64,000 nucleotides of DNA from a virus: UHGV virus genome UHGV-0125199. One strand, given 5' to 3'. The position numbers were made by a program, and so were the translations under genes. How positions within the stretch are numbered: position 1 is the first letter of the stretch; the number at the start of each line of letters is the position of its first letter. The notes under the pieces were generated by a model. That model had not been told where the DNA came from, ran no database searches, and saw only the letters and a list, made by a program, of their open reading frames with translations. Positions 2,868-33,215 of this stretch are shown here, piece after piece.

Positions 2868-3123
2868 ATGACTTTACAATCTCAATAGCAATATCAGCCG
2901 GAATATAAACAGCTTCATCAGATGAATTGTCTCCGCAAATATATTCTCCATTTAATGCTGCGTATAATCGTAATTGATCAATAACCATATCCATATCAAA
3001 AGCTACCGGCTGTTTATCAATCAAATCGTCAATGTATCCAACTCCAACTTGACCAGGAGAAAATCCTGTTTCTTTTGCAAACTGTTTTGCTAGTTTTTGC
3101 TTATCAATAAATTCTGTACTCAT
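2830..3123 (-). CDS. hypothetical protein
   Basis: ORF track; overlaps neighbour by 38 nt. Confidence 0.4.
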   Translation of the reverse strand: MSTEFIDKQKLAKQFAKETGFSPGQVGVGYIDDLIDKQPVAFDMDMVIDQLRLYAALNGEYICGDNSSDEAVYIPADIAIEIVKSCGIGDPYKFFRK

Positions 3124-4001: not shown

Positions 4002-4304
4002 TTACATGCTCCGGTACAAATCTTCATATTTAAATCGCTCCATTTCTTTCTTCTGTTTCTGAATCTTAATTGCCTGATCACAAATAATCTCGCGTAACAT
4101 TTCAATGTCTTGTTTATGCATATCAGTAGACGTATTAGCCATTGTATTTGTTTTTATCAATGAACAAATACACTCCATACATTCTGTCATATCATCAACA
4201 GTAATATCTGATTGACATCCGTTTTCTACCATCAAATATAATTCACTCAAATTTTTGTTATATTGTCTAATTGTATCGAAATTTTCTTCAGATAATTTTC
4301 TCAT
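4002..4304 (-). CDS. hypothetical Cys-containing protein
   Basis: ORF track. The overlapping 3857..4105 ORF probably starts at an internal Met (MKICTGACKNC...). Confidence 0.4.
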   Translation of the reverse strand: MRKLSEENFDTIRQYNKNLSELYLMVENGCQSDITVDDMTECMECICSLIKTNTMANTSTDMHKQDIEMLREIICDQAIKIQKQKKEMERFKYEDLYRSM

Positions 4305-5230
4305 TATTCACACCTCGCTTTATCACACTCATGAAATCTTAATAACATGTTATATTTTTCTTTGCCAAATATGTTTTTCCATTTATTTTTAGTTTTTTCC
4401 GTGTTCCAATTAAAAGGCATCATGTGATAATTAATTAAAAAACAACAATCTAACAAAAAATCATCGGTATTATATTCTTCAAATGGATTATGTAATGTTG
4501 TTAAAACACAATACGATCCGACGTTTTCATGTCCAAAATAATGAGCAATCCCATTTTCATCAATCGTCTGTGTGCACAATTTACCAAAATCATGTATTTT
4601 TGCACCAAGAAGAAAACCGCTTTTATATACATCATAAGGATGAGCCAAATCTGAAAACTTGTTATATGTAAAATCACAATGGTCTTCTAAATACATATTG
4701 TGGTGCGGATTTTTTTGATCAAATCCTGTCATTGATATCATAACTGCATTTGGAAGGATTTTTTCAGCATATGAATATCCCATATCATGAATAATAATTT
4801 CACTAAATCCTTCTTCTTTAAAAGGAATTTGAAATCTTCTTAACTGCTTTTCGAGTACATATTCTGGTACTGTATGTTCTCTATTCTTATTATCTTTAAC
4901 ACAATCTTTGTATTTCTTAGGTACAATATAACAAATCTTCTCAACATCCAATTTTTTCACGTGCTCAACAATCGCGCGTCGTGACTTTATCGTGATATTC
5001 GTTGCATCTGCAATTACATTTTTATTCTTATTTAATGATTCTCTTATTCTCTTATTAAAAATATTAAACACTTTTTCATTATCAGATTGATTTTGGCATG
5101 ATCCAAATAATTCTTCTCTAATTGCATCTGAAGATACAATCTCTGCATTATATTTGATAGCTAAATCTTTTGCAATGCTGGACTTTCCGCTTCCAGAAAG
5201 TCCACACATAATAAATAATTTTGGCTTCAT
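4304..5230 (-). CDS. polynucleotide-kinase-like P-loop kinase fused to an HD phosphohydrolase domain (RNA end-healing enzyme candidate)
   Basis: N-terminus MCGLSGSGKSSIAKDL is a Walker A motif with T4 Pnk-like context. C-terminus carries HD-domain His/Asp motifs (AKIHDFGK, GHENVG). The start abuts the RNA ligase stop. Confidence 0.6.
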   Translation of the reverse strand: MKPKLFIMCGLSGSGKSSIAKDLAIKYNAEIVSSDAIREELFGSCQNQSDNEKVFNIFNKRIRESLNKNKNVIADATNITIKSRRAIVEHVKKLDVEKICYIVPKKYKDCVKDNKNREHTVPEYVLEKQLRRFQIPFKEEGFSEIIIHDMGYSYAEKILPNAVMISMTGFDQKNPHHNMYLEDHCDFTYNKFSDLAHPYDVYKSGFLLGAKIHDFGKLCTQTIDENGIAHYFGHENVGSYCVLTTLHNPFEEYNTDDFLLDCCFLINYHMMPFNWNTEKTKNKWKNIFGKEKYNMLLRFHECDKARCE

Positions 5231-6535
5231 TTACATTGCTTCCTCCATCAGTTCTTCAGCCTCTTCCATATCCGGAACATCTGAAGTATCTTTAATAATT
5301 GATTCAATTACCTTAAACTCAAACACTTTGTCCTTATAAGCTGTAAATGATTCTCTATTGTCAATACGTACAACCACACCTTCAGCAATGTGCGTTCTTC
5401 CAATTTCGTCTGCCGGCATACCAGATAAATATTTATTCACTCTTTCCATTAGATCTTCTTTTGTTGTATAAATAAATTTTTCTAATTCTGGAACATATTT
5501 TACACCAAGTTTATCACACCAAATTTTAACCACTTCCCAAGGAACTTCCATTACTGTTCCATCACCGGTTGTCATAGTCATACGATAAACATACATCTCA
5601 GATTCTCCTGGCTGACAACCATAAGAAAATGTTGTCTCTTTCCCAAACTTCTTTGTAAACTCTTTATCTTTGACTTTTGAATTTGATGCAGAACCCATAA
5701 TTGGTGTAGTCTCATTTACATATCCTACAATTTCGTAAAACACTTCACATCCTTCAGGTAATTTATCCTTTAATAAATCATGATATTTTTTTCTGAATGC
5801 ATTATCAGAATAATATCCATCTGTGCTATTCAAATCTTTAATTACAACTCTTCTACTTCCAGACACAACAGAAATTTCTTTTGTCTGTTTCTGTTTCATA
5901 TGTAATAATTCTCTCAATTTATTGTTCTTCTTTGTGATTTTTAATGTCTTAGCAGTACGAGCAGAAGTTCCATGAAGCTTACGTGTAATATAGATCGTAT
6001 CGCCAGGCTTAAAAGAATTTAAATTATATGCAAGCTGCGCAGTATCTTTATGTTCTTCAAAAAATGGATAGGAAATATTTTCTTTATACTTCTCTTTCTT
6101 TTTATTAGAGTTAATATTACTCCTTTTATTTCCTCTTGGAATATACTTTTTACAAATCTCATGTCCTCCAAGAACTGTAATTTGATCTCCATCTTTCAGT
6201 TTATTAATATCAGTATATTTCGAAAGTGTATCAATTGGTAAAATCAGTCCTTCAGATTTTTCACCTCTTAATCTGATTGCGGTTACATTTCTCTTATTTG
6301 GATCCATATAACCACCAACGTTATTACCGTTTTCATCCTTTGCTCTCACAAGTTTGTTGTCATTTGCATACTCTTCAGAAAGCTGTCCATCAGACGGAAA
6401 GAATACAACCCTCTGTCCATCTTTATAACTCAAATCCACAATTACATTCTGTCCGAATACCTCTACACACTGTAAACGGTCAGCATTGCTATGTTTTCTT
6501 AATCCTTTAAGTGTTGTAATATATCCACAATACAT
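5231..6535 (-). CDS. ATP-dependent RNA ligase (KxHG nucleotidyltransferase motif, Rnl2/Rnl5-like) with N-terminal OB/tRNA-binding-like domain
   Basis: ITRKLHGTSAR matches the lysine-adenylylation motif I (KxHG) of T4 Rnl2-type ligases. EVFYEIVGY resembles motif IV. N-terminal GEKSEGLILPID resembles tRNA-binding OB folds. Confidence 0.55.
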   Translation of the reverse strand: MYCGYITTLKGLRKHSNADRLQCVEVFGQNVIVDLSYKDGQRVVFFPSDGQLSEEYANDNKLVRAKDENGNNVGGYMDPNKRNVTAIRLRGEKSEGLILPIDTLSKYTDINKLKDGDQITVLGGHEICKKYIPRGNKRSNINSNKKKEKYKENISYPFFEEHKDTAQLAYNLNSFKPGDTIYITRKLHGTSARTAKTLKITKKNNKLRELLHMKQKQTKEISVVSGSRRVVIKDLNSTDGYYSDNAFRKKYHDLLKDKLPEGCEVFYEIVGYVNETTPIMGSASNSKVKDKEFTKKFGKETTFSYGCQPGESEMYVYRMTMTTGDGTVMEVPWEVVKIWCDKLGVKYVPELEKFIYTTKEDLMERVNKYLSGMPADEIGRTHIAEGVVVRIDNRESFTAYKDKVFEFKVIESIIKDTSDVPDMEEAEELMEEAM

Positions 6536-10542: not shown

Positions 10543-12237
10543 TTACTCTGTCTGTGGATTTATAAAATTTCCGGAATTAATATCCTCATATAACCTATCA
10601 AGTGCAATCTCAAATGCGCCAACACCTGAGAAAAAACTACTCAATTTCAAATTATCAAACAAATAAGGCATAGCTTTATAAAGCTCTACATATATGTAAT
10701 AAAGAACATCTACCACAATTGAATTGCCTGCCTGCTTATACAATTGACTATTTGAAACTCCTACTTTGTGTGCTGCGTCAAAATCTTTATCAGAAAATCC
10801 CATAAGTCTGAAGCACTCCTTTGGAGTTAGTTTGCGAATACGGATTGGAGATTCAATCTTACAAATACCAGTTTCTGTCGCAGTAATAGTTGGACTAATA
10901 TTCCCATCATCCTGGACTCTACCTCTTCTCGTTTTGCTATCTGGATAAGACAAATCTGCAACACCACCAATTTCACATTCGATATATCCCTGTTTTGTTG
11001 CTTGTTTGATTGCAACTTTGTTTCCTTCTCCTTTATTCGTAGTTAATGTTGGAGACAATCCATTTTCCGAATAAACAGACCCATTCATACCATTACCAGA
11101 TGGGTTGATATTCCCAATTTTTAGAACAGCAGTTCCTTCAGATTTTCTGTTGCTAATTCCTCTATCCTCTCTCGCTGCAATGCAATTTGCATATTCGATT
11201 AACTCTGGTTTATTATATGATTTATCAATTCCACATAATACATGTGGCTGTCTTCCACCACCTTGCATAGTCGTTAAAGTAGGACTAATATGACTATCAT
11301 CCCACACGCCTCCGGCATATCCTGTTCCGAAATCTTCTCGATTTACATTTCCAATAAATTTAGGTTGGTCAATTTCTACAACTCTTTTATCACCACATGA
11401 ATCAATTGTTCTTAATGCACCACATACATCATTTTTATAAGTTCGAAGCCCCTCATCTTCTCTTTCTTCACACACAAATTTATCATTTTGACTTTTCTCA
11501 TATTTACTTTCAATACTCGATATAAATTTTTGGGTTTTCTCATCAGAAATATAGAACTTCTCATCGACTTCATCTTCCAATAAATCCTTCAATCTTAATC
11601 CATTATCAAAAGGTTCTGGAAATTCAAACTTACCATTATCCAAATCCTTTTTAATAAATAACAGATACACACGTTCTCTGTTCTGTGGAATTCCATAATT
11701 TTTAGCATTCAGAACCTTCCAATATACGTTATATCCATATTCTTCTAATTCATCAGTAAATAATTTAAATGTTGTGTCTTTAAACTGTTTTCCAACGATA
11801 TTCTTTACATTTTCATAAATTCCAAAATTAGGTCTATTTGATCTAACTACTCGTAAATATTCAACAAGAAGAGATGATCTTGTCTTTTCAATATTTTTAC
11901 TTCCACAATTCGGACAACAATCTCTTTTACTCCAATGAACTGTTAATGGATTATATTCAAAATGCTTTCCATTATCATCCACACAATCTTTACAAGTCCA
12001 CACAGAGCCTTTTTGTTTACCAGCCACACTGAAATCCTGGCACGGTGATCCTCCACAAATCATATTAAAATTATCTAACTCAGTTTCATCAACCTTTGTA
12101 ATATCGCCAAGATTTTTACTTTCATCAACATTATGAATAGCACAATAACTTTTTGTTGCATATTTATCAAATTCACAAAAATTTACAAGTTCCCACTGTT
12201 TATCTGAATTATATTTTTTATCCTTATTTTCTACCAT
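10543..12237 (-). CDS. C5 cytosine-specific DNA methyltransferase with motif I at the C-terminus (apparent circular permutation)
   Basis: GGSPCQDFSVAG (motif IV PCQ), ENV (VI), QNRERV (VIII), RKLTPKECFRLMGF (IX), SNSQLYKQAGNSIVVDVL (X), then LKLSSFFSGVGAFEIALDRL (motif I FxGxG) as the last ~45 aa. The N-terminus begins with the post-motif-I segment EFDKYATKSYCAIHN. The C-terminal translation was re-checked by hand. Confidence 0.8.
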   Translation of the reverse strand: MVENKDKKYNSDKQWELVNFCEFDKYATKSYCAIHNVDESKNLGDITKVDETELDNFNMICGGSPCQDFSVAGKQKGSVWTCKDCVDDNGKHFEYNPLTVHWSKRDCCPNCGSKNIEKTRSSLLVEYLRVVRSNRPNFGIYENVKNIVGKQFKDTTFKLFTDELEEYGYNVYWKVLNAKNYGIPQNRERVYLLFIKKDLDNGKFEFPEPFDNGLRLKDLLEDEVDEKFYISDEKTQKFISSIESKYEKSQNDKFVCEEREDEGLRTYKNDVCGALRTIDSCGDKRVVEIDQPKFIGNVNREDFGTGYAGGVWDDSHISPTLTTMQGGGRQPHVLCGIDKSYNKPELIEYANCIAAREDRGISNRKSEGTAVLKIGNINPSGNGMNGSVYSENGLSPTLTTNKGEGNKVAIKQATKQGYIECEIGGVADLSYPDSKTRRGRVQDDGNISPTITATETGICKIESPIRIRKLTPKECFRLMGFSDKDFDAAHKVGVSNSQLYKQAGNSIVVDVLYYIYVELYKAMPYLFDNLKLSSFFSGVGAFEIALDRLYEDINSGNFINPQTE

Positions 12238-16972: not shown

Positions 16973-17725
16973 TCAACTTTTATCACTCTCGTGTTTAAAA
17001 CTAAACGACGGCATCATTTGCAATTTAAACAAATTCTTTTCGTGCATCTGGTCAATTTTCTTCTTTAATTGTTTATCATCAATTAGACCTGTTCTGATAT
17101 ATTTATCGAGAACATCATATGTAAATCCCAAGTTATCTTCATCTGTTTTATCACAAAGACCATCGGATGGAATTTTCTCAATGAACTCTTTCGGAAGTCC
17201 TAATGCATATCCGACTTCCTTAACTTCCGTAACAGTCAGATTAGACAATGGACTGAAATCACCAACACTATCTCCCCACCTTGTACTATATCCAATCCAA
17301 TCTTCAGATAAATTACATGTATTCGCAACTCTTCCATTTACAGTCTGAGACACAGCATATAATGTAGCCATTCTAATTCGCGCCGGCAGATTGATAGAAG
17401 ACTGTCTGCTCCAGTGATCGTCCAATTCAGACTTCACTTCATGTTTAATATCTCTTACTGCATTGAAAATATTCACCTCAATATTTTCAATTCCAAGATG
17501 ATCAACCACCTTCTTTGCAACATCAATATCTTTTTGTTTACCGTTTGGCATTAGGACTCCAAGCACTCTTTCTTTTCCTAGAGCTTCAACGCAGAGTGCA
17601 GCAACAATCGTCGAATCCTTCCCTCCTGAAATACCAACAACTGCTTTACAACCACTTCCGTTCTCTTTAAAGAAGTTCTGGATCCATTCAATAATTTCAG
17701 TTTTAATTTCATTTGCATTAAACAT
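16973..17725 (-). CDS. nadE: NH3-dependent NAD+ synthetase (NadE, PP-loop ATP pyrophosphatase)
   Basis: GISGGKDST PP-loop (SGGxDS). Colinear matches to NadE blocks (PARIRMATLYAVS; STRWGDSVGDFSPLSNLT; DEDNLGFTYDVLDKY). Confidence 0.75.
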   Translation of the reverse strand: MFNANEIKTEIIEWIQNFFKENGSGCKAVVGISGGKDSTIVAALCVEALGKERVLGVLMPNGKQKDIDVAKKVVDHLGIENIEVNIFNAVRDIKHEVKSELDDHWSRQSSINLPARIRMATLYAVSQTVNGRVANTCNLSEDWIGYSTRWGDSVGDFSPLSNLTVTEVKEVGYALGLPKEFIEKIPSDGLCDKTDEDNLGFTYDVLDKYIRTGLIDDKQLKKKIDQMHEKNLFKLQMMPSFSFKHESDKS

Positions 17726-19215
17726 TAAAATTCTCCTCCATGTAGTCTATCTCTAATTTCTTTTAACGATTGTTCTTTTAATAATTCTCCATCTTTAAAG
17801 ACTGTAATTAACATATTTCCACGTTTTTCATAATCAGTAGCCTGTTTCCATGTAAGCTCATCCTCGTAATAAATACTTCCATCATATCGTGTATATACTC
17901 TGCAGCATCCTTTCTGTGATTTCTTAAAACCACCGTCCTTAGGATTTTTAAAAATTGGAGTAGCTTTTCCATCAATCTCACAATATGTTGCTTTAATACA
18001 AGAACTAAAAGTGTCTCTTGTAAATGGTTTTAATACTCCGTCTTCTTCGATGCACTGAAATGAAAACGACCCAACTCCTAATGCTACATTTGAACACGCA
18101 AATCCATTTTTCATAAGAATTCTGTAAATTTCTTCACATCTCTGTACTGTAATTGAGTCACCGTAAATTGCTTTTACATGTGGATCTAACACTTTATACC
18201 CCTTGCTATTAACTGTCCCACCAAATTCTTCCCATAATTTAAATACAGTTTTTGTTACAACTTCTACACAATCTCCAGAATCTCCACGCATCAACATGCA
18301 TCCGTTATGATTCATGATTTCTGTTTTTAATTGAGGAAGAATATTATCGATGATATTCCAATAATCATAAGAGTCAAGAACTGCTGAAAAACTTGTGTTT
18401 GGATAGATTTCAGTAAGTAATCTTCTTAATAATGTAATCTCGTCTCCATCTACCGCATAATTACTGCACATTACAGAATGTTCTGTGCTAGGACTTCCAT
18501 ATGCAACAGGTTCTTTTGTACAATCACAAAAATAATTCTTTTCAAGATAAGGAATAGTTGGAACGGTTGCTGTATTCAAAAATGATAAACACCACCCAGC
18601 GCCTGCTTTTACCGCTGATTCCAAACACTCTTCTCCCCGGAAGTCAAAGGCACCAAGAGCTTTTGATCTTGGAATATAGTCATCACAAGTTAGACCATAA
18701 TAGTGATTAACGATGCTACGATAGGTCATTCCTACTGTTGCTGCTAACATTGGATGCCACATTTCTGCCGAGATAAGACTTTCTAAACTCTGAGGTAACC
18801 ATGCAAAATCTTTATGTGTATTTGTAATACCAAACATAGGCACATGCATTGGAACAATTGTACCTTCTGGCAATGAAACAATCTCAATTGGCAAATATCC
18901 CAATTTATGTAGACTTTCAATCTTGTCAATTTTATACGCATCCTTACCAAGTGATGCATCCATAATTCTTTTATATTCATAAATAATTTCTTCAAAAGGT
19001 TTGTCAAAAAATTCTTCATTGAAATAATCAATCAGATACGTTTTAATAAACCCCTGTAATCCAAACATTACTACTTTATCCCATCGTTTTACACGACTCA
19101 TTCTAGGAGTAAAATAGGAAACTGATTTTGTAATATTTTCAGGTAGCATTTCTGCATGAACCGCTTTATAAAAGTCAATTAATAACATTGGATTTGTCTT
19201 ATTCGTCATATTCAA
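17725..19215 (-). CDS. nadV: nicotinamide phosphoribosyltransferase family enzyme (NadV/NAMPT; possibly a Namat-type nicotinamide ADP-ribose transferase)
   Basis: LLIDFYKAVH...SYFTPR...VVMFGLQ...LPEGTIVPMHVPMF...FDFRGEE are NAMPT-family blocks. 496 aa. Start overlaps the nadE stop. Confidence 0.8.
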   Translation of the reverse strand: MNMTNKTNPMLLIDFYKAVHAEMLPENITKSVSYFTPRMSRVKRWDKVVMFGLQGFIKTYLIDYFNEEFFDKPFEEIIYEYKRIMDASLGKDAYKIDKIESLHKLGYLPIEIVSLPEGTIVPMHVPMFGITNTHKDFAWLPQSLESLISAEMWHPMLAATVGMTYRSIVNHYYGLTCDDYIPRSKALGAFDFRGEECLESAVKAGAGWCLSFLNTATVPTIPYLEKNYFCDCTKEPVAYGSPSTEHSVMCSNYAVDGDEITLLRRLLTEIYPNTSFSAVLDSYDYWNIIDNILPQLKTEIMNHNGCMLMRGDSGDCVEVVTKTVFKLWEEFGGTVNSKGYKVLDPHVKAIYGDSITVQRCEEIYRILMKNGFACSNVALGVGSFSFQCIEEDGVLKPFTRDTFSSCIKATYCEIDGKATPIFKNPKDGGFKKSQKGCCRVYTRYDGSIYYEDELTWKQATDYEKRGNMLITVFKDGELLKEQSLKEIRDRLHGGEF

Positions 19216-20029
19216 ATACCTCTACTTTCTCATGTTCTTTTGTAAAAATACTATTTGTCGTGAACACTCTGTCAATCAATCCACTACTCAATACTTCTCC
19301 TTCGAGGATTGTATTTTCACAATGAGATACATATAGATAAATCTCCTTTGCTCCCAGTTCCTTTAACTTAATAGCTGAATGATAAAATGTTCCGCCACGA
19401 CTTGAAATATCATCTACAATTAAAATTTTTCTTCCTTTAATCAGATTTGTCATGCCTGAAACATCTAGTCCTTTAATCTCCCCTGTTTCCCAATCGCGCT
19501 TTTTAATACCAAAAGCATAAGGAAGATCAAACATTGTAGAATAACGTTTCATAGCTCCTTCGTCCGGATAGAACATTGTAAGATTATTTGTGCCACCAAT
19601 GTATTCACTTTCAATCGCTTTCCACACATATTTGTCTGGATATTTAATTAAAACTCTATCAATAAGAGCTTCGCTTACAGATGAATGTGGATCTAATACT
19701 GTTACAGAATCAAAATTCAGCCAATTAATAACTTCTGCAAAATACTTTAATGTAAATACATCTTCTGTTGTTTTAACACGATCTTGACGACTGTTTGGAA
19801 TATATGGCATATTCAAGTACAAATTTGTAATACCATGAGAATTAAGGTGTTTGACAATATAAATCAATGTCACCAATTCTTCATTATCTTCAAACAACCA
19901 GGTAATAGTTGCTTCTCTGTAATTTTTAAAATCATAAGAAACATCCTCTTTAAGCAAGAGAGTTCCATCTGGAAATTTCTTTGTATTTACTACTTCTCCA
20001 TTAATTTTAATCATAAGACTTTTCTCCAA
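19199..20029 (-). CDS. ribose-phosphate pyrophosphokinase-like enzyme (Prs homologue; candidate ADPR-PP synthetase Adps)
   Basis: ILIVDDISSRGGTF phosphoribosyltransferase-type PRPP/nucleotide-binding loop. Prs-like size; overlaps the nadV start. Confidence 0.7.
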   Translation of the reverse strand: MEKSLMIKINGEVVNTKKFPDGTLLLKEDVSYDFKNYREATITWLFEDNEELVTLIYIVKHLNSHGITNLYLNMPYIPNSRQDRVKTTEDVFTLKYFAEVINWLNFDSVTVLDPHSSVSEALIDRVLIKYPDKYVWKAIESEYIGGTNNLTMFYPDEGAMKRYSTMFDLPYAFGIKKRDWETGEIKGLDVSGMTNLIKGRKILIVDDISSRGGTFYHSAIKLKELGAKEIYLYVSHCENTILEGEVLSSGLIDRVFTTNSIFTKEHEKVEVFEYDE

Positions 20030-23476: not shown

Positions 23477-24024
23477 TGCTTTTCCCTATTCGTAGGTTTC
23501 CCACCTAACAAATTTCCTTCTTCGTCTCTGTCATATTTCCACATCAAATAATCACACCAATTATCATTGTTAAAATCACTCATGTTGTAAAACGGATCAG
23601 GATCATCTATAACATATTGCTTGTCAAATCCTTTAATTTTCACATTTACATCATCTACAATAACTCTTTTTGATAATCTACAAATCCATTTCATAAATTC
23701 CTGAAATGTATCTTCAAATTCTCTATCACGTAATGCACCATCAACAACAAGAATATATTCGTCTTGTGTATGTAACCAACCACGTTTATAACTTCTTCTT
23801 CCTCTTGAATCTCTTAAGTTATTTGTTCCCTCAAAAAATTCATCGCTACTGCTTGAGCTGTTATATCCTCTTTTTTGAATCACATATACTTCCATATCTC
23901 TTTCTGATCCGGTAACAACCGGAAGATGATCAAGTACTGTTTCGAGAATATATCTCTTTTCATGTTCTGTCCTACCTAGAGGAGAAACAACAATTGTCCC
24001 ATGTACATATGTCCAACTACTCAT
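23473..24024 (-). CDS. hypothetical protein
   Basis: ORF track. Confidence 0.5.
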   Translation of the reverse strand: MSSWTYVHGTIVVSPLGRTEHEKRYILETVLDHLPVVTGSERDMEVYVIQKRGYNSSSSSDEFFEGTNNLRDSRGRRSYKRGWLHTQDEYILVVDGALRDREFEDTFQEFMKWICRLSKRVIVDDVNVKIKGFDKQYVIDDPDPFYNMSDFNNDNWCDYLMWKYDRDEEGNLLGGKPTNREKQ

Positions 24025-24270
24025 TTTATTTACCTCTTTTGATATTAATCACATCGGTATTTACAATCTTATATCACATGCAGCTCACAAACATTTTCAA
24101 ATAGCGACAAATGAAATAGTTTGTTGAATCAACGTTTACAGTTTCTAAATATTCGATTTACTGTAGGTGATATTTGATTATAAACACCGATGAAAATCAT
24201 ATGCAGAACTTTATGTATCTTATTTTATTGGAGGTATGAAACATGTATAGAAATTTATTCCGCATATGAA

Positions 24271-24342
24271 TTGTAGATAAAGGATTTGAACCTTTTCTTA
24301 TGCGCCACACTACATCGTGCTACCATTTACACTAATCTACAA
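24271..24342 (-). tRNA. tRNA-like element / probable pseudo-tRNA (intact acceptor, D and T arms, but the anticodon stem cannot be paired)
   Basis: Minus-strand reading 5' TTGTAGAT TA GTGT AAATGGTA GCAC ... AAAGG TTCAAAT CCTTT ATCTACAA has the canonical GGTTCAAATCC T-arm and a 7-8 bp acceptor. The middle segment GATGTAGTGTGGCGCATAAG does not fold. Confidence 0.3.
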
Positions 24343-24465
24343 CTTTTAGGATATTATTATGAAAACTAGATCATTACTATTTAAGGAGAGCAATATTACT
24401 ATGAGAACCAAAAAAACAATAAAAAATATTATTTAAAATCCAATACAAAATAGTAATAACCTAAA

Positions 24466-24538
24466 TGGATCATTCGGGACTCGAACCCGAAACCGATCGG
24501 TTATGAGCCGATTGCGCTCACCATTGCGCCAATGATCC
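24466..24538 (-). tRNA. tRNA-Met (anticodon CAT; could also be tRNA-Ile2/initiator class, not distinguishable here)
   Basis: 73-nt cloverleaf folded by hand: acceptor GGATCAT/ATGATCC; D-stem GCGC/GCGC; anticodon stem ATCGG/CCGAT with loop CTCATAA; T-stem TCGGG/CCCGA with loop TTCGAGT. No CCA is encoded. Confidence 0.9.
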
Positions 24539-24570
24539 TTATTCTGTGCCGCTCGTAGCAGCACATTTTT

Positions 24571-24753
24571 TTAATTGAAACTTCTATAAAAATCTCCTGT
24601 TTTATCAATGCTTCTGCAAACCATAGATTCAATTTCTCGTTTCATTTCTTCGCCACATTCAGGACACATATGTCCATCTCCTGTATACTCTTTCATCGAC
24701 ATCGTGATAATTTTTTTGTGTCCACATTTTGGACATTGAAATGGATAATTCAT
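24571..24753 (-). CDS. zinc-ribbon protein
   Basis: CPKCGH...CPECGEE. Confidence 0.4.
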   Translation of the reverse strand: MNYPFQCPKCGHKKIITMSMKEYTGDGHMCPECGEEMKREIESMVCRSIDKTGDFYRSFN

Positions 24754-24772
24754 ATTATTTATTTCTCTCCTT

Positions 24773-25144
24773 TTAGCCTTCTAATTTTCTTAGTTCTGTC
24801 ATTAAATTCACTAACTCTCTATTGTTCTTATTAATTAAACGATTGATTTCTTTGATTCTATCAATACGTTCTTCTTCCTCTTTACGTTTTGAATATGCCT
24901 CCATATTAACAACGCCGACTACCTGAGCTGTAGGATTTTCGCCATATACACTCACAGGTAAAATTACTTTTACCTTTCCTAATACTCTCCTATCTTTGTT
25001 TCTTGCATTTACAACCACAAGTGTATTATTCAAATTTGCTGTTCTAAGTAATTCATATTCTTCCTTATATAATGCAAATCCATAATCTTTTTTGTTATGG
25101 TCTTCTAGTAAGTTCACAATTGCAACTAAATCACATACTGTCAT
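24773..25144 (-). CDS. hypothetical protein
   Basis: ORF track. Confidence 0.45.
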   Translation of the reverse strand: MTVCDLVAIVNLLEDHNKKDYGFALYKEEYELLRTANLNNTLVVVNARNKDRRVLGKVKVILPVSVYGENPTAQVVGVVNMEAYSKRKEEEERIDRIKEINRLINKNNRELVNLMTELRKLEG

Positions 25145-25193
25145 AGTTTTATTCTCCTTTTTAATCTAATAATTCTTTATCGATAATCTGTTT

Positions 25194-25555
25194 CCATCCT
25201 TATATTTGTATAAATTACATCTTCTTTTTCTATTTTTTATAATGCAGCTTTTCGCTCGCATTTCAATCATCATACTAATGTAAATTACATCCATTTCGTG
25301 ACGTATCTCTGATACAAAACATATAATTTCAATCCTCATACTTATGTAAACTACATCTTTATAAAAGTCTTTGGTGTTACTATTGTCTTTTATTTCAATC
25401 CTCATACTTATGTAAACTACATCGAGGTATTGAAATGGTTGACTTTGGTATCACATTATTTCAATCCTCATACTTATGTAAACTACATCCTCTCTTACAA
25501 AAATCTGCATTTTAAGCATTTCAATTTCAATCCTCATACTTATGTAAACTACATC
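25194..25555 (-). CRISPR. mini CRISPR-like array with 32-bp repeats and 34-bp spacers, periodic at 66 bp. Four identical repeats plus degenerate copies at the distal (low-coordinate) end. The crRNA-sense repeat GATGTAGTTTACATAAGTATGAGGATTGAAAT ends in a type I-B-like ATTGAAAT handle.
   Basis: Perfect repeats at 25326-25357, 25392-25423, 25458-25489 and 25524-25555. A 3-mismatch copy lies at 25260-25291 and a degenerate copy at about 25197-25221. The three internal spacers are unique. Confidence 0.75.
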
Positions 25556-25762
25556 ATCAAAAATACACAAATATGACATATCTATTTTATGTAACTTACA
25601 CAATTCTAAGGTTACAAAAGCGTTATCCGTTTTCGTATATGTAAATAAATGATTACTACTCACTGATTTCTTTTATCTACTTTAGTGCGAATAAACCGTA
25701 TAACTTATGTTCACTTCATATTCGCACATGGCGGCGTTGAACCTGCAACCATGTATATGTAT

Positions 25763-27167
25763 TTAAGCTATTTGCTTCTTATATTCTTTCTCTTTAGCCA
25801 TGTTCAAAATATTAATTGCAGCATTAATGTCTCTATCATGAATCGCTCCACATTCAGGACAAATCCAGCCTCTTATTTTTGTATCTTTTGTATTTACGTT
25901 CACAAAACCACATTTACTGCATGTTTGTGTTGATTTTTTATATTGTCCAATTGCAACAACCGGTACACCATATTCTTCACCTTTTCTTTTTAACAAAGTA
26001 AGAATTTCTCCCATCGCTGCATCAGATAAATTATCATTTCTCACTCTTGTTTTTCTTGACATACATATCTTTAACCGACAAAGTTTCTATTCCAATAAAG
26101 TCTGATCTTTTTATAACTTCTAACACCATATTCTCCATATGATATTTTCTTTGTCGTGTTACCTTTCTTTCTAATTTTGCTTTTTTAAATTTTGTTTCTA
26201 TGTATCTTTTAGAAGGCTTTAATTCAACATTTTCTTTTCTTAATTCACTTAATCTTTTCCTAAACTCAATATTGCTATACCCTTGTCTTCTGGATAATTG
26301 CCTATTTAACATCTCACGATGTTGACGAACACTTCCGTCTCTACCATTTTTGAATCTAGGATTATCATATTTTGTTCCGTCTGATAAAGTCATCAAAGTT
26401 GAAATTCCAACGTCAATTCCTATTTCTCTTTTCTCTTCTTCTACTTTCACAATCCTATAAATATCTTTCATACATAGCTGTAAAAAGTAATCGCCACAAT
26501 TATCTTTTTTTACAGTTGTTAATATTTGTTGTTTCTTATGTAAATTCACATATTCTTCAAAATTCATCATGCATGATGAATCAAACCAGACATTTTTTAG
26601 ATATCCTTTAATCCCCCTAATCTTTACCTTTCCGATTTTAGCTAAATTAAAATATGCTACATTTTTATTCTCCTCATTAAAGCTCATTTTTCTCAGAAAT
26701 TCTTGATATGTATAACTTGTTCTCGGATGTTTCTTTGAATAATATGGAGGTTTACTGTTCTCAATCGGTCTTTTAACTCCCTTTCCATTTGTTTTCTTAT
26801 TAGAATTTTCTCCACTCACTTGAGCATCCAATCGCTTCGACAAATCACACAAGAAAACTCCATTCTCACCAGACAAAGCACCCGCTGGAATCAATTTAAT
26901 GTCTTCTCTCCTACTTCTTAACACATCCAAATACTGTTTCTTTGCAATAGACTTTACATCCGGAAAATGAACAGTTTGTCCTGCATTCTTTTGGTCTGGT
27001 CTTTCAATTGTATTAACTTTATTTTCAAACATATCGTAAACAGCCATATTACACGCCTTATGTAAAGCCAAAATAATTCTATCTATTAATTCACTCTGCT
27101 CTTTATTCGGATACATTCTAAAATTGAAAGTATATACCGGTATTTTTATAACTTTTTCAACTAGCAT
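25763..27167 (-). pseudogene. tnpB: IS200/IS605-family TnpB (OrfB; RuvC-like nuclease with C-terminal zinc finger), split by a -1 frameshift in an A5 run at about 26051-26055
   Basis: N-terminal ORF has RuvC-I (IGIDVGISTLM) and RuvC-II (IGIETLSVKDM) blocks. The overlapping C-terminal ORF has LSDAAMGEI, CSKCGFV...[19 protein letters not shown]. Deleting one A of AAGAAAAACAAG restores a continuous TnpB. A structured GC-rich region 25650-25760 downstream resembles an omegaRNA/right end. Confidence 0.8.
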
Positions 27168-27274
27168 TTAACCAGACCTCCTTTTGCTACATTTCATACC
27201 ATATACTGTATTTTTATATCAACTAACGCACTATATAATGTGTCAAATTCCAAATGAAATCGAGATTTAATTAT

Positions 27275-28039
27275 TTAAGATTCGGTGATAAAAAACGGAC
27301 GAACACCATAATCGCCCCAAACGCAACCGCCGTAGCACACGTTACCACCACCGTAAACAACCTGAACACAGGAAGCATCTTTTCTTGATTTCGTCTGATT
27401 TGGAGTTGACAGCCAGTATGGATAATTGATTAGTGGAAGTTTTTCACCACATTTTCTGAATAAATCAAAAGTCGGAATAGACAATACATCATCTTTTACA
27501 ACACCATAATCATTAAATCCATCCATACTAAGCAAGTTATTTTCAACTGGAGTAATACTATTTCCATATTTACATTTAATGTCTTTTGCAAGCTTGCACT
27601 CTTTAAGATACTTTCTTACAGAAGATTCTGCGTAGTTATTATTGCTGCCAAAACTCATATTCGTAAGAACTCCATACATAAAATGATATATCTTTCCATA
27701 CATTCGAATGTTTGTCCAATAATATCCAAATTCCTCTTTAAAGTGCTTGTTCATAAAATCTTTAACGGATTCTCTAAATTCATCTTCATATCTCTCTGGA
27801 TCGTTACTATACCATTCTGGTACAATATCCTGATCGACTTTATAAGTCCACTTTGAAATATCGGAAGTGATAATATATTTCTCTGGCGGAATTAATTCTG
27901 CTCTCACAAATTTCTTAGAAGCATTAAATTCATTATCTTCTACATCCAATTTTTCAAGCAAACTTGAATGACTTTCATTTCCTAACGGAGCAAGTTCCAC
28001 CCTATTCTTAAAAATAATTCCACTTTTAAACTCACACAT
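27275..28039 (-). CDS. hypothetical protein
   Basis: ORF track. Confidence 0.5.
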   Translation of the reverse strand: MCEFKSGIIFKNRVELAPLGNESHSSLLEKLDVEDNEFNASKKFVRAELIPPEKYIITSDISKWTYKVDQDIVPEWYSNDPERYEDEFRESVKDFMNKHFKEEFGYYWTNIRMYGKIYHFMYGVLTNMSFGSNNNYAESSVRKYLKECKLAKDIKCKYGNSITPVENNLLSMDGFNDYGVVKDDVLSIPTFDLFRKCGEKLPLINYPYWLSTPNQTKSRKDASCVQVVYGGGNVCYGGCVWGDYGVRPFFITES

Positions 28040-28071
28040 AATTTATTTCTCCTATTTTTTACTTGTTCCAT

Positions 28072-28656
28072 CTAAACAATCTCGATCTGTTCTCCTGTTA
28101 GCTCTTCCAACTTCTTCCGCATTTCCTCCACGGTCATTTTCTTCGATTCGGCGCGTTCCCAAATGAGTTCGAGGTTGTCATCGTCTAATATGCTCTCTAA
28201 AATTGCTCTTCGGCAAATCTTAAATACCTTCATGATAGTCAATCTAGGATATTCGTTTTCCAAGTTTTCGTTGTATGCACTTAATTCATAATGAGAATCC
28301 TTCCCGACCAAACATTCATCAATTACTAATCTTCTATCTCCGTCTCTGTATTCCACTACCATCCCATCTCTCAAATCTGCCTTTTTAAATTCTTTCTGCA
28401 TGTAATCACCCCATTCCAGGATTTTATACCCTTTGATTTTGTAGTACTCATTGCGTGAGTACTCACCATATCCTGTATAGCATGGTTCACTGAGATGTTT
28501 TCCATATTCTGTACATTCTAAATAACTCTCTCCATTTCTCCACTTCATCCCGTGCTCATGCATTCTCTTGCAAAAGTCTTTCGCCTCTTTCTCGGTCTTG
28601 CAGTGCACCGCAATCTTATTGTCTGTATCCTTAAATTCGTCCCAGTTAAATCTCAT
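28072..28656 (-). CDS. hypothetical protein
   Basis: ORF track. Confidence 0.5.
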   Translation of the reverse strand: MRFNWDEFKDTDNKIAVHCKTEKEAKDFCKRMHEHGMKWRNGESYLECTEYGKHLSEPCYTGYGEYSRNEYYKIKGYKILEWGDYMQKEFKKADLRDGMVVEYRDGDRRLVIDECLVGKDSHYELSAYNENLENEYPRLTIMKVFKICRRAILESILDDDNLELIWERAESKKMTVEEMRKKLEELTGEQIEIV

Positions 28657-28846
28657 CTTTCTTACCTCATTCTTCCTCTTTTATATATTTTGCTACAAAC
28701 ATCAATGCTCCAACTCCTAGTACAAACCCGTAGAAAAATGCCTCTTCTCCAAGTTCATATAATCTGGCACCGGCTAAACAGGATGTAATCAACCCACCAA
28801 TTGACATTATGTTCCAAAAAGTTTTCTCCATATGTAATTCACCACC

Positions 28847-30328
28847 TTATCCTACAAGTTCATACTTGTTCCTTAAAAATTCACCAATATCATTTACCAT
28901 GTATGTATAATTTTCTTTTTGATCTTTAATATATGTAGAATTTCTGTTAAAGAAACTTCCCATCCACTCAGGAATTTCTAAATCTATGTTTGTTTCAAAG
29001 CTGTACGCAACAACAGCAAGTAAAGAATTCATGTTTTCAGGCTCAAGAAGCTTAGATGAACCGTCAATTTTTTTGTCCTTCCGTAGTTTTTTTACCCAAT
29101 CATTTAAAGAAATCTTGTAAATTTCAACATCTTCACCAATCACATCTTCTTTAACATTTTCTTTGATAAATTCAAGAGCGTTCTGGTCTGAAGAAGCATT
29201 ATCTATTACATTATTCTCTCCCACTTCGACAAGACTTTCTTCATCTTCTTTAATATGTAAATACTCTTTCATAAGAGCAGTTAAGATGTTAATTTTCTCT
29301 TTTAAAATAGCCTTACCTTTTGTATGACGATCCTCATTTAATTTGTCAAATGTTGCTCCATTTACATCTTTTTTATATAAAGACTTTTCAAATTCTTCTA
29401 CAAAATCCTTAAACTTAATATCATCTAATCCAAATTTAGCAAACTCTTTAAACACAGGGATCCAAACAATAACATTTTTTGGCACAAACACTTCTGTGAA
29501 ATTATCTTTGCACACAGATTCAATCCTGCTAAAATATTCATTTACAGTATCAAAGTGTTCTTCCGTTGCGTTCTCATTTAGATATTTGCTCATGTTCTTT
29601 ATTGCACTTTTCCAGTTATCAAAGAAAAACGTTGTCATGACAGATTCACATACAAGTCTTTCTCTAATACCTTTCGATTGCTGCTTACCGGAACAAGACA
29701 TACAATTTTTAAAGAATTTATTTTTCTCAGATATTGTCCTTATTTTTCTTGCATGTAAATCAATATAAGTAAATGCTTTCTGAGATGTATTCATTCCCAA
29801 ATGATTGTTGTATCTTCTCACCAATTTACTAATCTGTGACATCGTACAATGCTGATGTATTGTAATGTCAATCTGATAATCATCAAACATTTTTTTCAAT
29901 TCTGGCGGTAACATTTCATATGTTTTTCTTCTCAAATCATATTCAACAGATTCCCAAATAACTTTTCCGTATTCATCTTTACAGATTTTATTATTTTCAT
30001 CTTTCTTTTTTCTCTGATATTGGATAATTGGATCTTCTAAAGCAGCTGTAATTTTATAGTTTTCATGCTTAAATTTAATCAACGCAGAACTTCTTTGCAT
30101 TCCATCAACAATGTATTGCTGCACAACGTCTTCGTCCAAATCTTCTTCTCCTAAGATAATTGGGGGAATATAATCATCAGTTAATACAGTTTTGATTAAC
30201 TCATTCACCATTCCATTTTCCCAACAAAACAGTCTTTGAACGTCCTGATTATCACTAATATCTTCTTCCACAATCTTTTCTAAATAAGAATCTAGCGATA
30301 ATGTCTTTTTTCTAATTTTCTTTGCCAT
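28847..30328 (-). CDS. DUF262 (ParB-like nuclease superfamily, GmrSD N-terminal-type) domain protein
   Basis: DVQRLFCWENGM and IVDGMQRSSAL match the DUF262 QR-x-x-W and DGQQR motifs. No C-terminal DUF1524/HNH motif was seen. Confidence 0.5.
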   Translation of the reverse strand: MAKKIRKKTLSLDSYLEKIVEEDISDNQDVQRLFCWENGMVNELIKTVLTDDYIPPIILGEEDLDEDVVQQYIVDGMQRSSALIKFKHENYKITAALEDPIIQYQRKKKDENNKICKDEYGKVIWESVEYDLRRKTYEMLPPELKKMFDDYQIDITIHQHCTMSQISKLVRRYNNHLGMNTSQKAFTYIDLHARKIRTISEKNKFFKNCMSCSGKQQSKGIRERLVCESVMTTFFFDNWKSAIKNMSKYLNENATEEHFDTVNEYFSRIESVCKDNFTEVFVPKNVIVWIPVFKEFAKFGLDDIKFKDFVEEFEKSLYKKDVNGATFDKLNEDRHTKGKAILKEKINILTALMKEYLHIKEDEESLVEVGENNVIDNASSDQNALEFIKENVKEDVIGEDVEIYKISLNDWVKKLRKDKKIDGSSKLLEPENMNSLLAVVAYSFETNIDLEIPEWMGSFFNRNSTYIKDQKENYTYMVNDIGEFLRNKYELVG

Positions 30329-31709: not shown

Positions 31710-33215
31710 TCTAAAAAATTGCATCAGAAATAAGCGTTTAGAAACTTGTCCACACGATTGAACTTCTCATGGCTAAAGCCACGAGATTCTTGGGAACTCT
31801 TTTCTATTGAAAAGATATTTACCAAGCTAACTCGATAGTTCCTACCGTTATTATTTATTTCGTTACGCTACTTCTAATATCCTTAATCCTTCATTTAGAA
31901 TATTTATCGCAGCATTTATATCTCTATCGTGATGAGTATGGCAACAAGGACAATCCCATTCTCTAACATTAAGATTTTTAGTTTCTTTATTCACATATCC
32001 GCATACACTACAAATTTGAGAACTCGCAAAGAATTTATCTACTTTAATAACCTCTCTACCATACCAATTAGATTTATATTCTAGTTGTCTGACAAACTCA
32101 GACTATGATACGTCCACAATAGATTGAGCAAGTTTATGATTTTTAATAATATTTTTTACTTGTAAATCTTCAATACATATCACATCATTACCCCTAACAA
32201 TCTTAGTAGATAATTTCTGCAAGAAGTCTTTTCTCTGATTTGCGATATGTTCCTGAAGTCTTGCAACCTTAATTCTTGCTTTATTACGATTTGAACTACC
32301 TTTTGATTTTCGAGATAATTCTCTTTGTAATTTTGCAAGTTTATCTAAAGACTTCTTTAAATACTTTGGGTTTGGAATTATTTCTCCTTCAGATGTTATA
32401 CAAAATTCTTTTATTCCAAGATCAATACCAACTGCATTTTTTGTTTTAGGTAATGGTTGAATTTCAATATCAGTACAACAAAGCGACACAAAATATTTTC
32501 CACTTGGTTCTTGTGATATAGTGGCATTAAGTATTCTACCTTGTGGTATTAGCTTATTTTTCGTTTTTACCATTCCCAACTTTGGAAGTTTAATGTATTT
32601 ATTGCAATATTGAATATTACCGTTTACACATTTTGACTTATAGGAATATCTATGTGTTTTCTTTGATTTGAATTTTGGATAACCTGTGTGTTCTTTAAAG
32701 AACTTCTGATATGCTGAATCTAAATCCCTAAGAGAAGATTGAAGAGCAGTGGAATCAACTTCTTTAAGCCATTCGAGTTCCAATTTCAGTGTCTTCATAT
32801 CATTTGCACATTGTACATATGAAAATGTTTCTTTATTTTTCTCATACATTTCGATGCGTTTTGCAAGGTATTTATTATATACAAATCTACAAGAACCAAA
32901 AGTTTTAGTAATTATTTCTTTTTGCTTCTTATTTGGATATATTCGATATTTATAAGCTTTTTCCACCGATTTCACCTCGCTTCCGCTTTTGATTTTTAAT
33001 ATACTTTCTAATTTGTTCTTCTGTGTTTTACACACAATACAATATGATATTGAATTGAATATACATAACCCCTACCATGTGTTACTTCCATGATTTGTCC
33101 CCTCATATGTATATTCTCCATTTGGCGATTCATCTCATCACTAAAGTGACGAGTGTTCTCGCCTAATCTAATAAAAAGTAAATTTCAATATTCAGTTTTC
33201 CAATATTTGGAATTT
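31710..33215 (-). mobile_element. IS605-family (IS1341-like, tnpB-only) insertion sequence; approximate boundaries
   Basis: tnpB flanked by subterminal hairpins: ctcatggctaaagccacgag at about 31768, and ggcga...cactaaagtga...tcgcc at about 33128-33165. Confidence 0.4.
31863..33035 (-). pseudogene. tnpB: IS200/IS605-family TnpB, second and divergent copy, with an in-frame TAG at 32103-32105 replacing the conserved Trp codon
   Basis: N-terminal part has RuvC-I AVGIDLGIKEF and RuvC-II VICIEDLQVKN. The same frame continues after TAG as [37 protein letters not shown]...[19 protein letters not shown] (zinc finger, RuvC-III). Canonical TnpB has W at the stop position (DxxWxEF). Confidence 0.8.

Follow-up and report, generated by a model that had tools for sequence, protein, structure and literature searches.

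What is a tnpB-like gene, lying in two reading frames, doing directly upstream of a CRISPR array in a phage? The locus in question lies on the minus strand of the virus genome UHGV-0125199, of which a stretch of 64 kb was analysed (the window, meaning that whole stretch). The original prediction considered two answers: a minimal type V-like unit, in which effector, scaffold and array belong together, or an insertion sequence (IS) of the IS605 family inserted at the array leader. The first of these is borne out and the unit can be given a name. With a probability of about 0.75, the phage encodes here a system of the TranC type: an RNA-guided nuclease that is type V-like and derived from TnpB, that has no adaptation genes, and whose effector appears to be made as two polypeptides. 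We assign it to the TranC type because LaTranC is the best match in both sequence and fold, a downstream array is conserved, the predicted trans-activating CRISPR RNA (tracrRNA) covaries with the repeat, and the protospacers are flanked by TTC. An intact catalytic set completes the TranC features that we tested for, all of which were found.

Organisation of the locus

A tnpB-like gene in two frames, a structured stretch of about 200 nt and the array follow each other on the minus strand in the predicted order:

28039-27275, minus: DUF6273-like open reading frame (ORF), the gene immediately upstream of effector ORF1
27167-26034, minus: effector ORF1, 377 aa, matching Pfam OrfB_IS605 (E=3.8e-13)
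26062-25763, minus: effector ORF2, 99 aa, +1 frame, matching Pfam Cas12f1-like_TNB (E=8.7e-21)
26062-26034, minus: overlap of ORF1 and ORF2 (the split junction), 29 nt, including an A5 run at 26050-26054
25762-25556, minus: non-coding stretch between ORF2 and the array, 207 nt
25752-25556, minus: predicted tracrRNA/omegaRNA-like scaffold, from conserved blocks, an RNAalifold helix, covariation and minimum free energy
25555-25190, minus: CRISPR array of six 32-nt repeats and five spacers

The stretch between effector and array is not GC-rich as had been claimed: 25556-25762 has 31% G+C, compared with 32% for the window, and 40% is reached only in the first 70 nt. Two small ORFs and two tRNAs come after the array in minus-strand order.

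Relationship of the effector to TranC

ORF1 contains the WED/REC region, RuvC-I (D252 in GIDVG) and RuvC-II (E361 in GIETL), and terminates in a double stop, TGA TAA. ORF2 begins at a conserved ATG (MSRKTRV...) and contains a Zn finger (C48/C51/C68/C71) and RuvC-III (HDRD, D78). The RuvC D-E-D triad and the Zn finger/TNB domain are intact, but distributed over two ORFs.

Deletion of one base anywhere within the 29-nt overlap yields an intact 467-aa protein. When this repaired protein was compared with all PDB chains, LaTranC (9jfo/9jfq) was the best match (E=1.4e-65 over residues 4-461), followed by ISDra2 TnpB (E about 1e-25), with Cas12m and Cas12n far weaker; ORF1 by itself aligns with LaTranC residues 4-310. 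An AlphaFold2 (AF2) model of the contiguous relative P0008, which is 63% identical to the window effector (mean predicted local distance difference test score, pLDDT, 89.4; predicted template modelling score 0.79), gave the same ranking in a fold search: LaTranC came first (TM-score 0.80, E=2.4e-36), then TnpBs (0.57-0.60), and then Fanzor2, Cas12f and Cas12p. The PADLOC models for Cas12f and Cas12u matched ORF1 weakly (E 1e-8 to 1e-15), and the Pfam and PHROG matches of the effector are to families labelled 'transposase'. The effector is homologous to characterised TranC and nearer to it than to transposon TnpB.

TranC, for 'transposon-CRISPR intermediate', was named by Jin et al. (Cell 2025). 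The passages of PMC13565253 and PMC13639567 that cite that work present TranCs as TnpB lineages that gained arrays when the omegaRNA/reRNA was functionally divided into tracrRNA and CRISPR RNA (crRNA).

Conservation of the effector-scaffold-array module

In all loci not cut by contig ends, from 99% down to about 32% protein identity, the effector is followed by 165-240 nt and a co-oriented array; the exceptions are L113, L114 and L117 (L and P numbers denote loci and proteins of relatives). Every complete locus of at least 46% identity has a downstream array, as do most of those at 32-40%. The repeats vary by clade: a Blautia caecimuris prophage-like region has GATGCAATCTACATTGCATACGAGGATTGAAAT, L020 has GATTCGATTCATGCGGACGTACGAATTGGGAA and L022 has GACGCAACCGGCGCGAGTGCGCAGGGCCAGAG. 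Relatives at 97-99% identity always show the same gene context, with an array. Sources of the close relatives are human-gut metagenomes and IMG/VR viral contigs of 90-164 kb, and an identical ORF1 protein is encoded on a 233,877-bp ENA metagenome contig.

Pfam scans found no Cas1 among window ORFs of at least 229 aa. PADLOC and Pfam searches of the window ORFs returned no Cas family other than Cas12-like ones among the best 25 of 130 PADLOC families, with the limit that small Cas2- or Cas4-like ORFs could escape them. TranC clades 3 and 11 have been described as having repeats of 32-36 bp (median about five), a tracrRNA between effector and array, and no accessory cas genes (10.64898/2026.03.27.714800).

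Scaffold and anti-repeat

Both sequences originally singled out as structured were located, one as a hairpin and the other, GTTGCAGGTTCAAC, within a motif at the 5' end of the scaffold:

25750-25730, minus: invariant 5' motif, including GTTGCAGGTTCAAC
25727-25719 and 25693-25685, minus: arms of the hairpin GTGCGAATA...TATTCGCAC
25683-25656, minus: conserved block (AAAGTAGATAAAAGAAAT is among the conserved blocks)
25621-25610, minus: GCTTTTGTAACC
25602-25590, minus: anti-repeat, with helix partners at 25615-25606

We aligned the region from the effector stop to the first repeat in 11 loci. Conserved in this alignment are the 5' motif, the hairpin at 25727-25685 (absent from L099 and shortened in L084), AAAGTAGATAAAAGAAAT, GCTTTTGTAACC and the block at 25602-25590. 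A 21-nt motif, GGTTGCAGGTTCAACGCCGCC, starts 12-25 nt past the effector stop in relatives at 37-99% identity. The predicted fold of the scaffold together with repeat 1 has an energy of -57.3 kcal/mol (z = -3.6), better than 200 of 200 shuffles. An Rfam scan of 24000-28000 returned two tRNAs only, so the scaffold belongs to no curated RNA family.

Without guidance, RNAalifold paired 25615-25590 with nearly the whole first repeat. In the resulting tracrRNA:repeat helix 93.6% of cells are paired, as against 32-37% when the partners are slid by 1-3 columns, and seven pairs have changes on both sides (for example, A-U five times and G-C four times at one pair, U-A five times and A-U five times at another). 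The covariation value is 0.324, compared with 0.06-0.11, and none of 500 shuffles scored as high. The case for a guide RNA that would be divided into tracrRNA and crRNA, pairing through the anti-repeat, is good but not overwhelming, because the sequences are related and the alignment is small.

Independent support for the pairing comes from two phage contigs in which another, orphan copy of the scaffold lies at a distance from the effector and is fused directly to the 3' half of the repeat. In L178 the natural fusion TAACCTCA-GAA-TGAGGATTG would form helices 1-2 as a simple hairpin in cis, followed by AAAT and a would-be guide. The orphan copies (L175 7884-8014 and L178 1535-1640; IMG/VR 3300045988_158045 and _163512; relatives at 89% identity) have the form ...TAACCTCAGAATGAGGATTGAAAT plus a flanking 'guide', and both are located just upstream of a tRNA-Trp gene. 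No such copy occurs in the window. They look like natural single-guide, or omegaRNA-like, units.

Two other elements of the scaffold were considered. A repeat-like 20-mer in the hairpin loop (25703-25722) was rejected as a degenerate repeat, being conserved regardless of repeat variation. Pairing of GGTT in the 5' motif with AACC was superseded by a TAAC:GATTG pairing, which RNAalifold predicts and which occurs in cis in the L178 fusion; a GGTT:AACC pseudoknot is possible.

Spacer targets and adjacent motif

Protospacers were found for two spacers, on the same two viral contigs:

25523-25490, minus: spacer 1, matching IMGVR_UViG_3300045988_181040 at 34/34 positions (41 kb) and _180649 at 31/34 (39 kb)
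25457-25424, minus: spacer 2, matching both IMGVR_UViG_3300045988_181040 and _180649 at 34/34 positions

The protospacer of spacer 2 is at the start of an XRE/helix-turn-helix repressor gene near an integrase gene. TTTTC is located directly 5' of four out of four protospacer instances (a small sample, representing two distinct spacers), which amounts to a 5'-TTC protospacer-adjacent motif (PAM); the chance of finding TTC at two independent spacers is about 2e-4 ((1/64)^2). LaTranC has the PAM 5'-TTC (10.1101/2025.09.28.678669). Repeats flank none of the protospacer sites, and a self-targeting search of the spacers against the window and all fetched loci gave array-to-array matches only. An exact IMG/VR search with spacer 1 of L012 found no protospacer. 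The system appears to be aimed at a different, temperate phage, and the nature of the targets suggests a role in inter-phage competition or in excluding a resident prophage.

Just 3' of protospacer 2, the target phage DNA (L172 1857-1885, L171 1859-1890) resembles the 5' half of the repeat with an offset of about 5 nt (AGTAGTTTACTATATAATATGA compared with TGTAGTTTACATAAGTATGA, sharing an exact 9-nt GTAGTTTAC), and this stretch overlaps a promoter-like TTTACT...TATAAT. Protospacer 1 has no comparable flank, and the resemblance is probably due to chance.

The split reading frame

The effector frame had been described as broken only by a single A in an A5 run. The break is indeed one of a single base, but the run lies at 26050-26054 rather than 26051-26055, and alignment to the contiguous relative L083 places the indel not within it but by the ORF1 stops, at about 26036-26045.

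The split is not peculiar to the window. Homologue clusters at 99, 97, 93, 80, 73, 70, 63, 62 and 53% identity all consist of proteins of 373-378 aa (one such cluster holds 456 member sequences), and must therefore share a stopping point. ORF2 is intact and has its own start codon in 31 of 31 split loci (46-99% identity), the junction taking different forms:

Window, 89% and 62% groups: ORF1 ends in a double stop (TGA TAA or TAA TAA); ORF2 starts with ATG in the +1 frame, MSRKTRV[RK]; overlap 29 nt
51-52% group (including Blautia caecimuris): ORF1 ends ...SMY[TA]*; ORF2 starts with ATG in the +2 frame, MSKKTRIKNENLSD; overlap ATGA (4 nt)
46% group: ORF1 ends ...NSENK* (TAG); ORF2 starts with GTG 8 nt after AGGAAGGA, in the +1 frame; overlap 14 nt

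The N-terminus of ORF2, MS[RK]KTR[VI][RK], is kept with conservative replacements across clades of differing frame offset, and the frame is therefore read from that start. The ratio of nonsynonymous to synonymous substitution rates (dN/dS) is 0.04-0.35 for ORF2 and 0.07-0.21 for ORF1 across pairs, with dS up to about 2; for the window and L017 (dS 0.72) it is 0.074 for ORF1 and 0.040 for ORF2. The break falls between the two Pfam domains, OrfB_IS605 and Cas12f1-like_TNB, and the equivalent residues in the P0008 model form a coil after the RuvC-II strand with the second-lowest pLDDT (blocks 361-380, 65-75).

The original prediction offered sequencing error, phase variation or transcriptional slippage as the cause of the broken frame. 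None of these fits, because the split is fixed in all 31 independent assemblies that have it, the offset is +1 or +2 depending on the clade, ORF2 always has a start codon, and strong purifying selection acts on both ORFs. Judging from these patterns, sequencing error, phase variation and recent pseudogenisation are excluded. Most likely, the split effector consists of two subunits that would assemble into one RuvC nuclease, with ORF2 translated by coupling or re-initiation.

Could the two ORFs nevertheless be joined into one full-length 467-aa effector, by programmed +1 frameshifting or transcriptional slippage in the A-rich overlap, and not be separate subunits at all? The overlap is A-rich (A5 in the window, A7 in L014), the ORF1 tail stops a few bases short of ORF2's conserved NDNLSD, the Shine-Dalgarno sequence before the window ORF2 is weak, and contiguous relatives show that a fused protein is viable. 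However, there is no conserved slippery site at the junction, the ORF1 ends being AAA TGA TAA, ACA TAA TAA, ACA TGA or AAA TAG by clade. The required shift would be +1 in two clades and +2/-1 in a third with only an ATGA overlap, and across clades ORF2 keeps its start codon and N-terminal peptide. Runs of five to seven A are also short for efficient slippage. We consider a fused product of this kind, and programmed recoding in general, unlikely, although recoding is possible in the window's own clade with its weak Shine-Dalgarno sequence.

Stop-codon recoding was ruled out, since ORF2 lies in a frame other than that of ORF1, which ends TGA TAA or TAA TAA. Nor does the odd tRNA-like gene at 24270-24342 act as a frameshift suppressor: L012 has the same split and no such tRNA. 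This gene (minus; also at L016 7715-7790) is assigned a two-base anticodon by ARAGORN, from an abnormal anticodon loop, and scores 47 bits in Rfam; it adjoins a normal tRNA-Met (24466-24538) and is present in only some relatives. We found no description of a natural effector split into two ORFs that is conserved in the TranC preprints, the 2023 TnpB/Cas12 survey or full-text searches, whose coverage is incomplete, so that this is weak evidence.

A sister clade (L084-L088, L101-L105 and L112; proteins P0009-P0015, about 60% identical) has a contiguous effector that has lost the RuvC-I aspartate (IGVRIG / IGVHIE), the Zn finger (by a 22-aa deletion) and the RuvC-III aspartate (HDKA / HDKT), and has retained the glutamate. 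Its members keep arrays with a variable number of spacers, and most loci (not L105) have two arrays and two or three copies of the scaffold motif. The clade's effector resembles an RNA-guided binder without nuclease activity, in the manner of TldR or Cas12m.

The array and its resemblance to type I-C

The array has the following parts:

Repeat consensus, minus: GATGTAGTTTACATAAGTATGAGGATTGAAAT, 32 nt, with a period of 66 nt
25555-25524, 25489-25458, 25423-25392 and 25357-25326, minus: repeats 1-4
25291-25260, minus: repeat 5, with 3 mismatches
25221-25190, minus: repeat 6, with 7 mismatches
Spacers 1-5, minus: 34, 34, 34, 34 and 38 nt

The trailer spacer and the degenerate last repeat are common to phages with 97-99% identical effectors, and the scaffold-proximal spacers differ (spacers 1-4 in the window; spacer 2 and a variant of spacer 4 in L091; two others in L012 and L092; three others in L013). 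This polarity is the one that leader-end acquisition combined with internal deletions would be expected to produce. L018 (5614-6405), L008 (5611-6132) and L022 (5620-6383) have two tandem arrays with differing repeat variants, about 330-360 nt apart; in L008 one repeat is left at the scaffold-proximal position. ORFs of 79 and 70 aa inside the array and scaffold (window 25166-25405 and 25451-25663, minus) are annotated as genes in public assemblies, and such a pair is called in L181 at 2505-2717 and 2763-3002. They are almost certainly spurious, being composed of repeat translations (…DVVYISMRIEI…).

The window repeat resembles those of type I-C systems in its length of 32 nt and its 3' end, GGATTGAAAT. 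The 3' ends are GAGGATTGAAAT in the window and GTGGATTGAAAT in L007 and L084, and the type I-C pattern is ...GTGGATTGAAA[CT], which forms an 11-nt 5' handle. The type I-C repeat of B. halodurans is GTCGCACTCTTCATGGGTGCGTGGATTGAAAT (PMC6519985), and that of Roseburia hominis, a gut Lachnospiraceae, ends in ...GCGTGGATTGAAAT (PMC4645204). In Xanthomonas the repeat is ...GCGTGGATTGAAAC and has an 11-nt 5' handle; its spacers measure 33-37 nt and the PAM is TTC (PMC8916207; PMC8406640). The G+C-rich type I-C hairpin is absent from the window repeat, and no cas3-cas5-cas8c-cas7-cas4-cas1-cas2 genes were found beside the array among the PADLOC matches listed or in Pfam scans of the window ORFs. By analogy, we tentatively suggest that the array may have descended from a host type I-C adaptation module and may still be refilled by it, although we would not give this even odds. 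Type I-C-like repeats of TranC are not described in the TranC preprints, the 2023 TnpB/Cas12 survey or the full-text searches, which is again weak evidence given their incomplete coverage.

The resemblance could be read more radically: the array might be a host-mimicking type I-C mini-array serving the host's Cascade/Cas3, and the adjacent TnpB-like protein might not use it. Besides the I-C-like repeat end and the 34-nt spacers, this idea can draw on the TTC flank, which is also the type I-C PAM, on the lack of cas adaptation genes among the ORFs searched in the window (Cas1 among those of at least 229 aa), and on the precedent of viral mini-arrays that exploit host systems (PMC11656645). What makes it improbable is that the 5' half of the repeat covaries with an anti-repeat beside the effector, that the G+C-rich I-C hairpin is missing, that effector and array remain linked in relatives whose repeats are no longer I-C-like, and that relatives contain orphan fused scaffold-repeat units. 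Use of the array by both host type I-C and phage effector is possible, and the host I-C reading is compatible with a TranC-type system.

IS insertion and sequencing error

If a decaying tnpB of the IS200/IS605 family had recently landed beside a pre-existing phage array, the frameshift would be the mark of a pseudogene. The 'transposase' labels of the Pfam and PHROG matches favour this, a genuinely broken IS605-type element exists in the same window (31860-33133), and insertion of a tnpB beside an existing array remains a possible origin of type V systems (PNAS 2023, PMC10691335). Our tests for an IS605 element in the window and IMG/VR nevertheless failed for tnpA, for IS ends and for copies. 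No tnpA was detected beside the locus by Pfam, the upstream gene being the DUF6273-like ORF. The scaffold motif occurs once in the window, and its nine occurrences across IMG/VR are all on contigs that also carry the effector locus, so the identical IS copies that an insertion at the leader might have left were not seen in either. Dozens of phage contigs at 32-99% identity have inherited the three-part module in the same order, both ORFs have a dN/dS far below 1, and the catalytic D/E/D and Zn finger are intact. The conserved module and the absence of tnpA exclude a chance or recent IS insertion at the array leader for the present locus, and a decaying IS is very improbable; in evolutionary terms the locus may have originated when a TnpB captured an array long ago.

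The second IS605-type element, at 31860-33133 (minus), is an ordinary and genuinely decayed one. It consists of an N-terminal tnpA fragment (33008-33133, ...YSIQYHIVLCVKHRR), the only tnpA fragment in the window, a 310-aa tnpB (32103-33035) with HTH_OrfB_IS605 and OrfB_IS605 that ends ahead of the TNB domain, and a TNB fragment lying apart from it (31863-31994). A genome-contig search with the effector protein alignment returned only Candidatus Poribacteria metagenome-assembled genomes (L024-L082) with unrelated TnpBs, present in many copies per genome and 22-36% identical over the C-terminal half; these are typical multi-copy IS, in contrast to the single-copy phage module.

A homopolymer sequencing or assembly error can be dismissed: one base in or near the A5 run would restore the frame, but the identical junction is present in independent assemblies from the ENA, Logan, IMG/VR and JGI sets, and diverged relatives keep the split with other sequences and frame offsets.

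Proposed mechanism and significance

We propose that the effector genes, the tracrRNA-like scaffold of about 200 nt and the array are transcribed through on the minus strand. The anti-repeat (25602-25590, plus 25615-25606) would pair with nearly all of the 32-nt repeat: with repeat 1 it could do so in cis, to give an omegaRNA-like single guide, and with later repeats in trans. After processing, the guide RNAs would direct cleavage of DNA bearing a 5'-TTC PAM. The two newest spacers seem to be aimed at one family of temperate phages of about 40 kb, and therefore the most likely role is inter-phage competition or superinfection exclusion. The effector would be composed of two polypeptides, ORF1 contributing WED/REC, D252 and E361, and ORF2 the Zn finger and D78; with the catalytic residues distributed in this way, the RuvC site would be complete only upon association. 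Translation of ORF2 probably starts at its own ATG and is coupled to that of ORF1.

Several points weigh against a two-polypeptide TranC-type system. In the window ORF2 is preceded by a weak Shine-Dalgarno sequence (AAAGAT, compared with AAAGGAT in relatives), so a recoded fused product is still possible in the window clade. In a crude neighbour-joining tree the contiguous P0008 and the nuclease-dead clade nest among split forms, which means that the split reverted or arose more than once; single-base indels in the A-rich linker have probably toggled the split and contiguous states more than once. Only two distinct protospacers were found: spacers 3 and 4 have no exact match in IMG/VR, and a blastn search of 32 concatenated spacers against GenBank phages gave no match. 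The type I-C link is one of resemblance only, and more distant TranC relatives have repeat 3' ends that are not I-C-like. Finally, a k-mer detector found no array in the distant L113, L114 and L117 (36-39% identity).

A more specific proposal combines an obligate two-subunit nuclease, in which a 44-kDa guide-binding chain supplies D and E and an 11.5-kDa chain the third D and the Zn finger, with a captured I-C array refilled by the host's I-C Cas1-Cas2-Cas4. This combination is doubtful, yet it would have clear consequences. Were the nuclease obligately two-subunit, cleavage could be dosed or switched by the supply of the small subunit and the large subunit alone would be a DNA binder, a state that appears to have become fixed in the nuclease-dead sister clade. 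Were the array refilled by I-C machinery, spacers chosen beside TTC would be directly usable by a TTC-reading TranC effector.

Standard annotation would record a frameshifted transposase and spurious small ORFs inside an array where there seems to be a working-looking phage-versus-phage weapon. If selection maintains a split in a Cas12/TnpB-type effector, then the RuvC site can tolerate, and perhaps exploit, two-chain assembly at the RuvC-II/TNB boundary; such a split could serve as a ready-made design for split or inducible TranC-based miniature editors. It is an open question whether type V arrays arose by omegaRNA duplication or by capture of pre-existing arrays (PNAS 2023, PMC10691335). 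The I-C-like repeat and shared TTC PAM bear on this question and on how arrays in mobile elements without cas1 acquire spacers.

Genomic context

The window is AT-rich (32% GC) and phage-like, with nearly all genes on the minus strand. Other genes include those for NAD salvage, an RNA ligase, a C5 methylase, an integrase, a pol III beta clamp, a Y-family polymerase and a UvrD helicase. A megablast search of GenBank phages with 24000-29000 found no match. A promoter and terminator scan was uninformative, promoter-like sites being fewer than in shuffles and terminators none.

Likely counter-defence or auxiliary genes are located at 4304-6535, 10543-12237, 16973-20029 and 28847-30328. The likely auxiliary set comprises a kinase (AAA_33) with an RNA ligase, a C5 DNA methylase, and an NAD synthase with NAMPT and a PRPP-synthetase-like protein (NAD salvage). 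A GmrSD_N-like protein is encoded two genes upstream of the effector, and in the relative L083 NAD genes are directly downstream of the array. The PADLOC model Csx1 ('found elsewhere') matched two window ORFs (best E=3.8e-29). The source of this match was not among ten candidate ORFs scanned individually; it may be the two TnpB-like ORFs matching a mislabelled model.

Comparison with known systems

IS200/IS605 TnpB, exemplified by ISDra2 (PDB 8h1j/8exa), shares the RuvC/TNB core fold (TM-score 0.57-0.60). As in ISDra2-type loci, the non-coding guide scaffold begins right past the 3' end of the gene on the same strand, with the guide 3' of the scaffold, and the fused scaffold-repeat single guides in the window's relatives resemble omegaRNAs. 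In contrast to such loci, the window locus has no tnpA, IS ends or multiple copies, its guide would derive from a CRISPR array through a tracrRNA:repeat duplex, and it has a simple 3-nt PAM instead of a 5-nt transposon-adjacent motif.

Cas12f (type V-F) and other miniature tracrRNA-dependent type V systems also combine a small RuvC effector with a tracrRNA and a short array, but the similarity is much weaker (fold E about 1e-12, TM-score 0.5-0.55). Nothing here points to a homodimer of the Cas12f type. Cas12f loci often contain cas1, cas2 and cas4.

Type I-C arrays (B. halodurans, Roseburia hominis, Xanthomonas oryzae) resemble the window array in three ways: their repeats, of 31-33 nt, end in (G)TGGATTGAAA[TC], their spacers measure 33-37 nt, and their PAM is 5'-TTC. 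They differ in that the window has no Cas5/7/8/3 or Cas1/2/4 among the PADLOC matches listed, and in that its repeat lacks the G+C-rich hairpin and has a 5' half predicted to pair with the tracrRNA anti-repeat. Viral CRISPR mini-arrays (PMC11656645) are likewise short, virus-borne, directed against another virus and without adaptation genes. Those arrays rely wholly on the host interference complex, whereas the window virus supplies its own effector and putative tracrRNA.

The closest counterpart is LaTranC (PDB 9jfo/9jfp/9jfq) and TranC in general, with an effector of about 470 aa, a downstream array of 32-nt repeats and few spacers, a tracrRNA between the two, a 5'-TTC PAM and no other cas genes. 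The window effector is only about 30-35% identical to LaTranC, its gene is split into two overlapping ORFs throughout a sub-lineage, and the 3' end of its repeat is identical to the type I-C 5' handle. Systems of the TranC kind were described recently, and one phage-borne TranC (CauTranC9) is already on record in a 2026 preprint (10.64898/2026.03.27.714800). What appears to be new here is the conserved split of the effector and the type I-C-like repeats.

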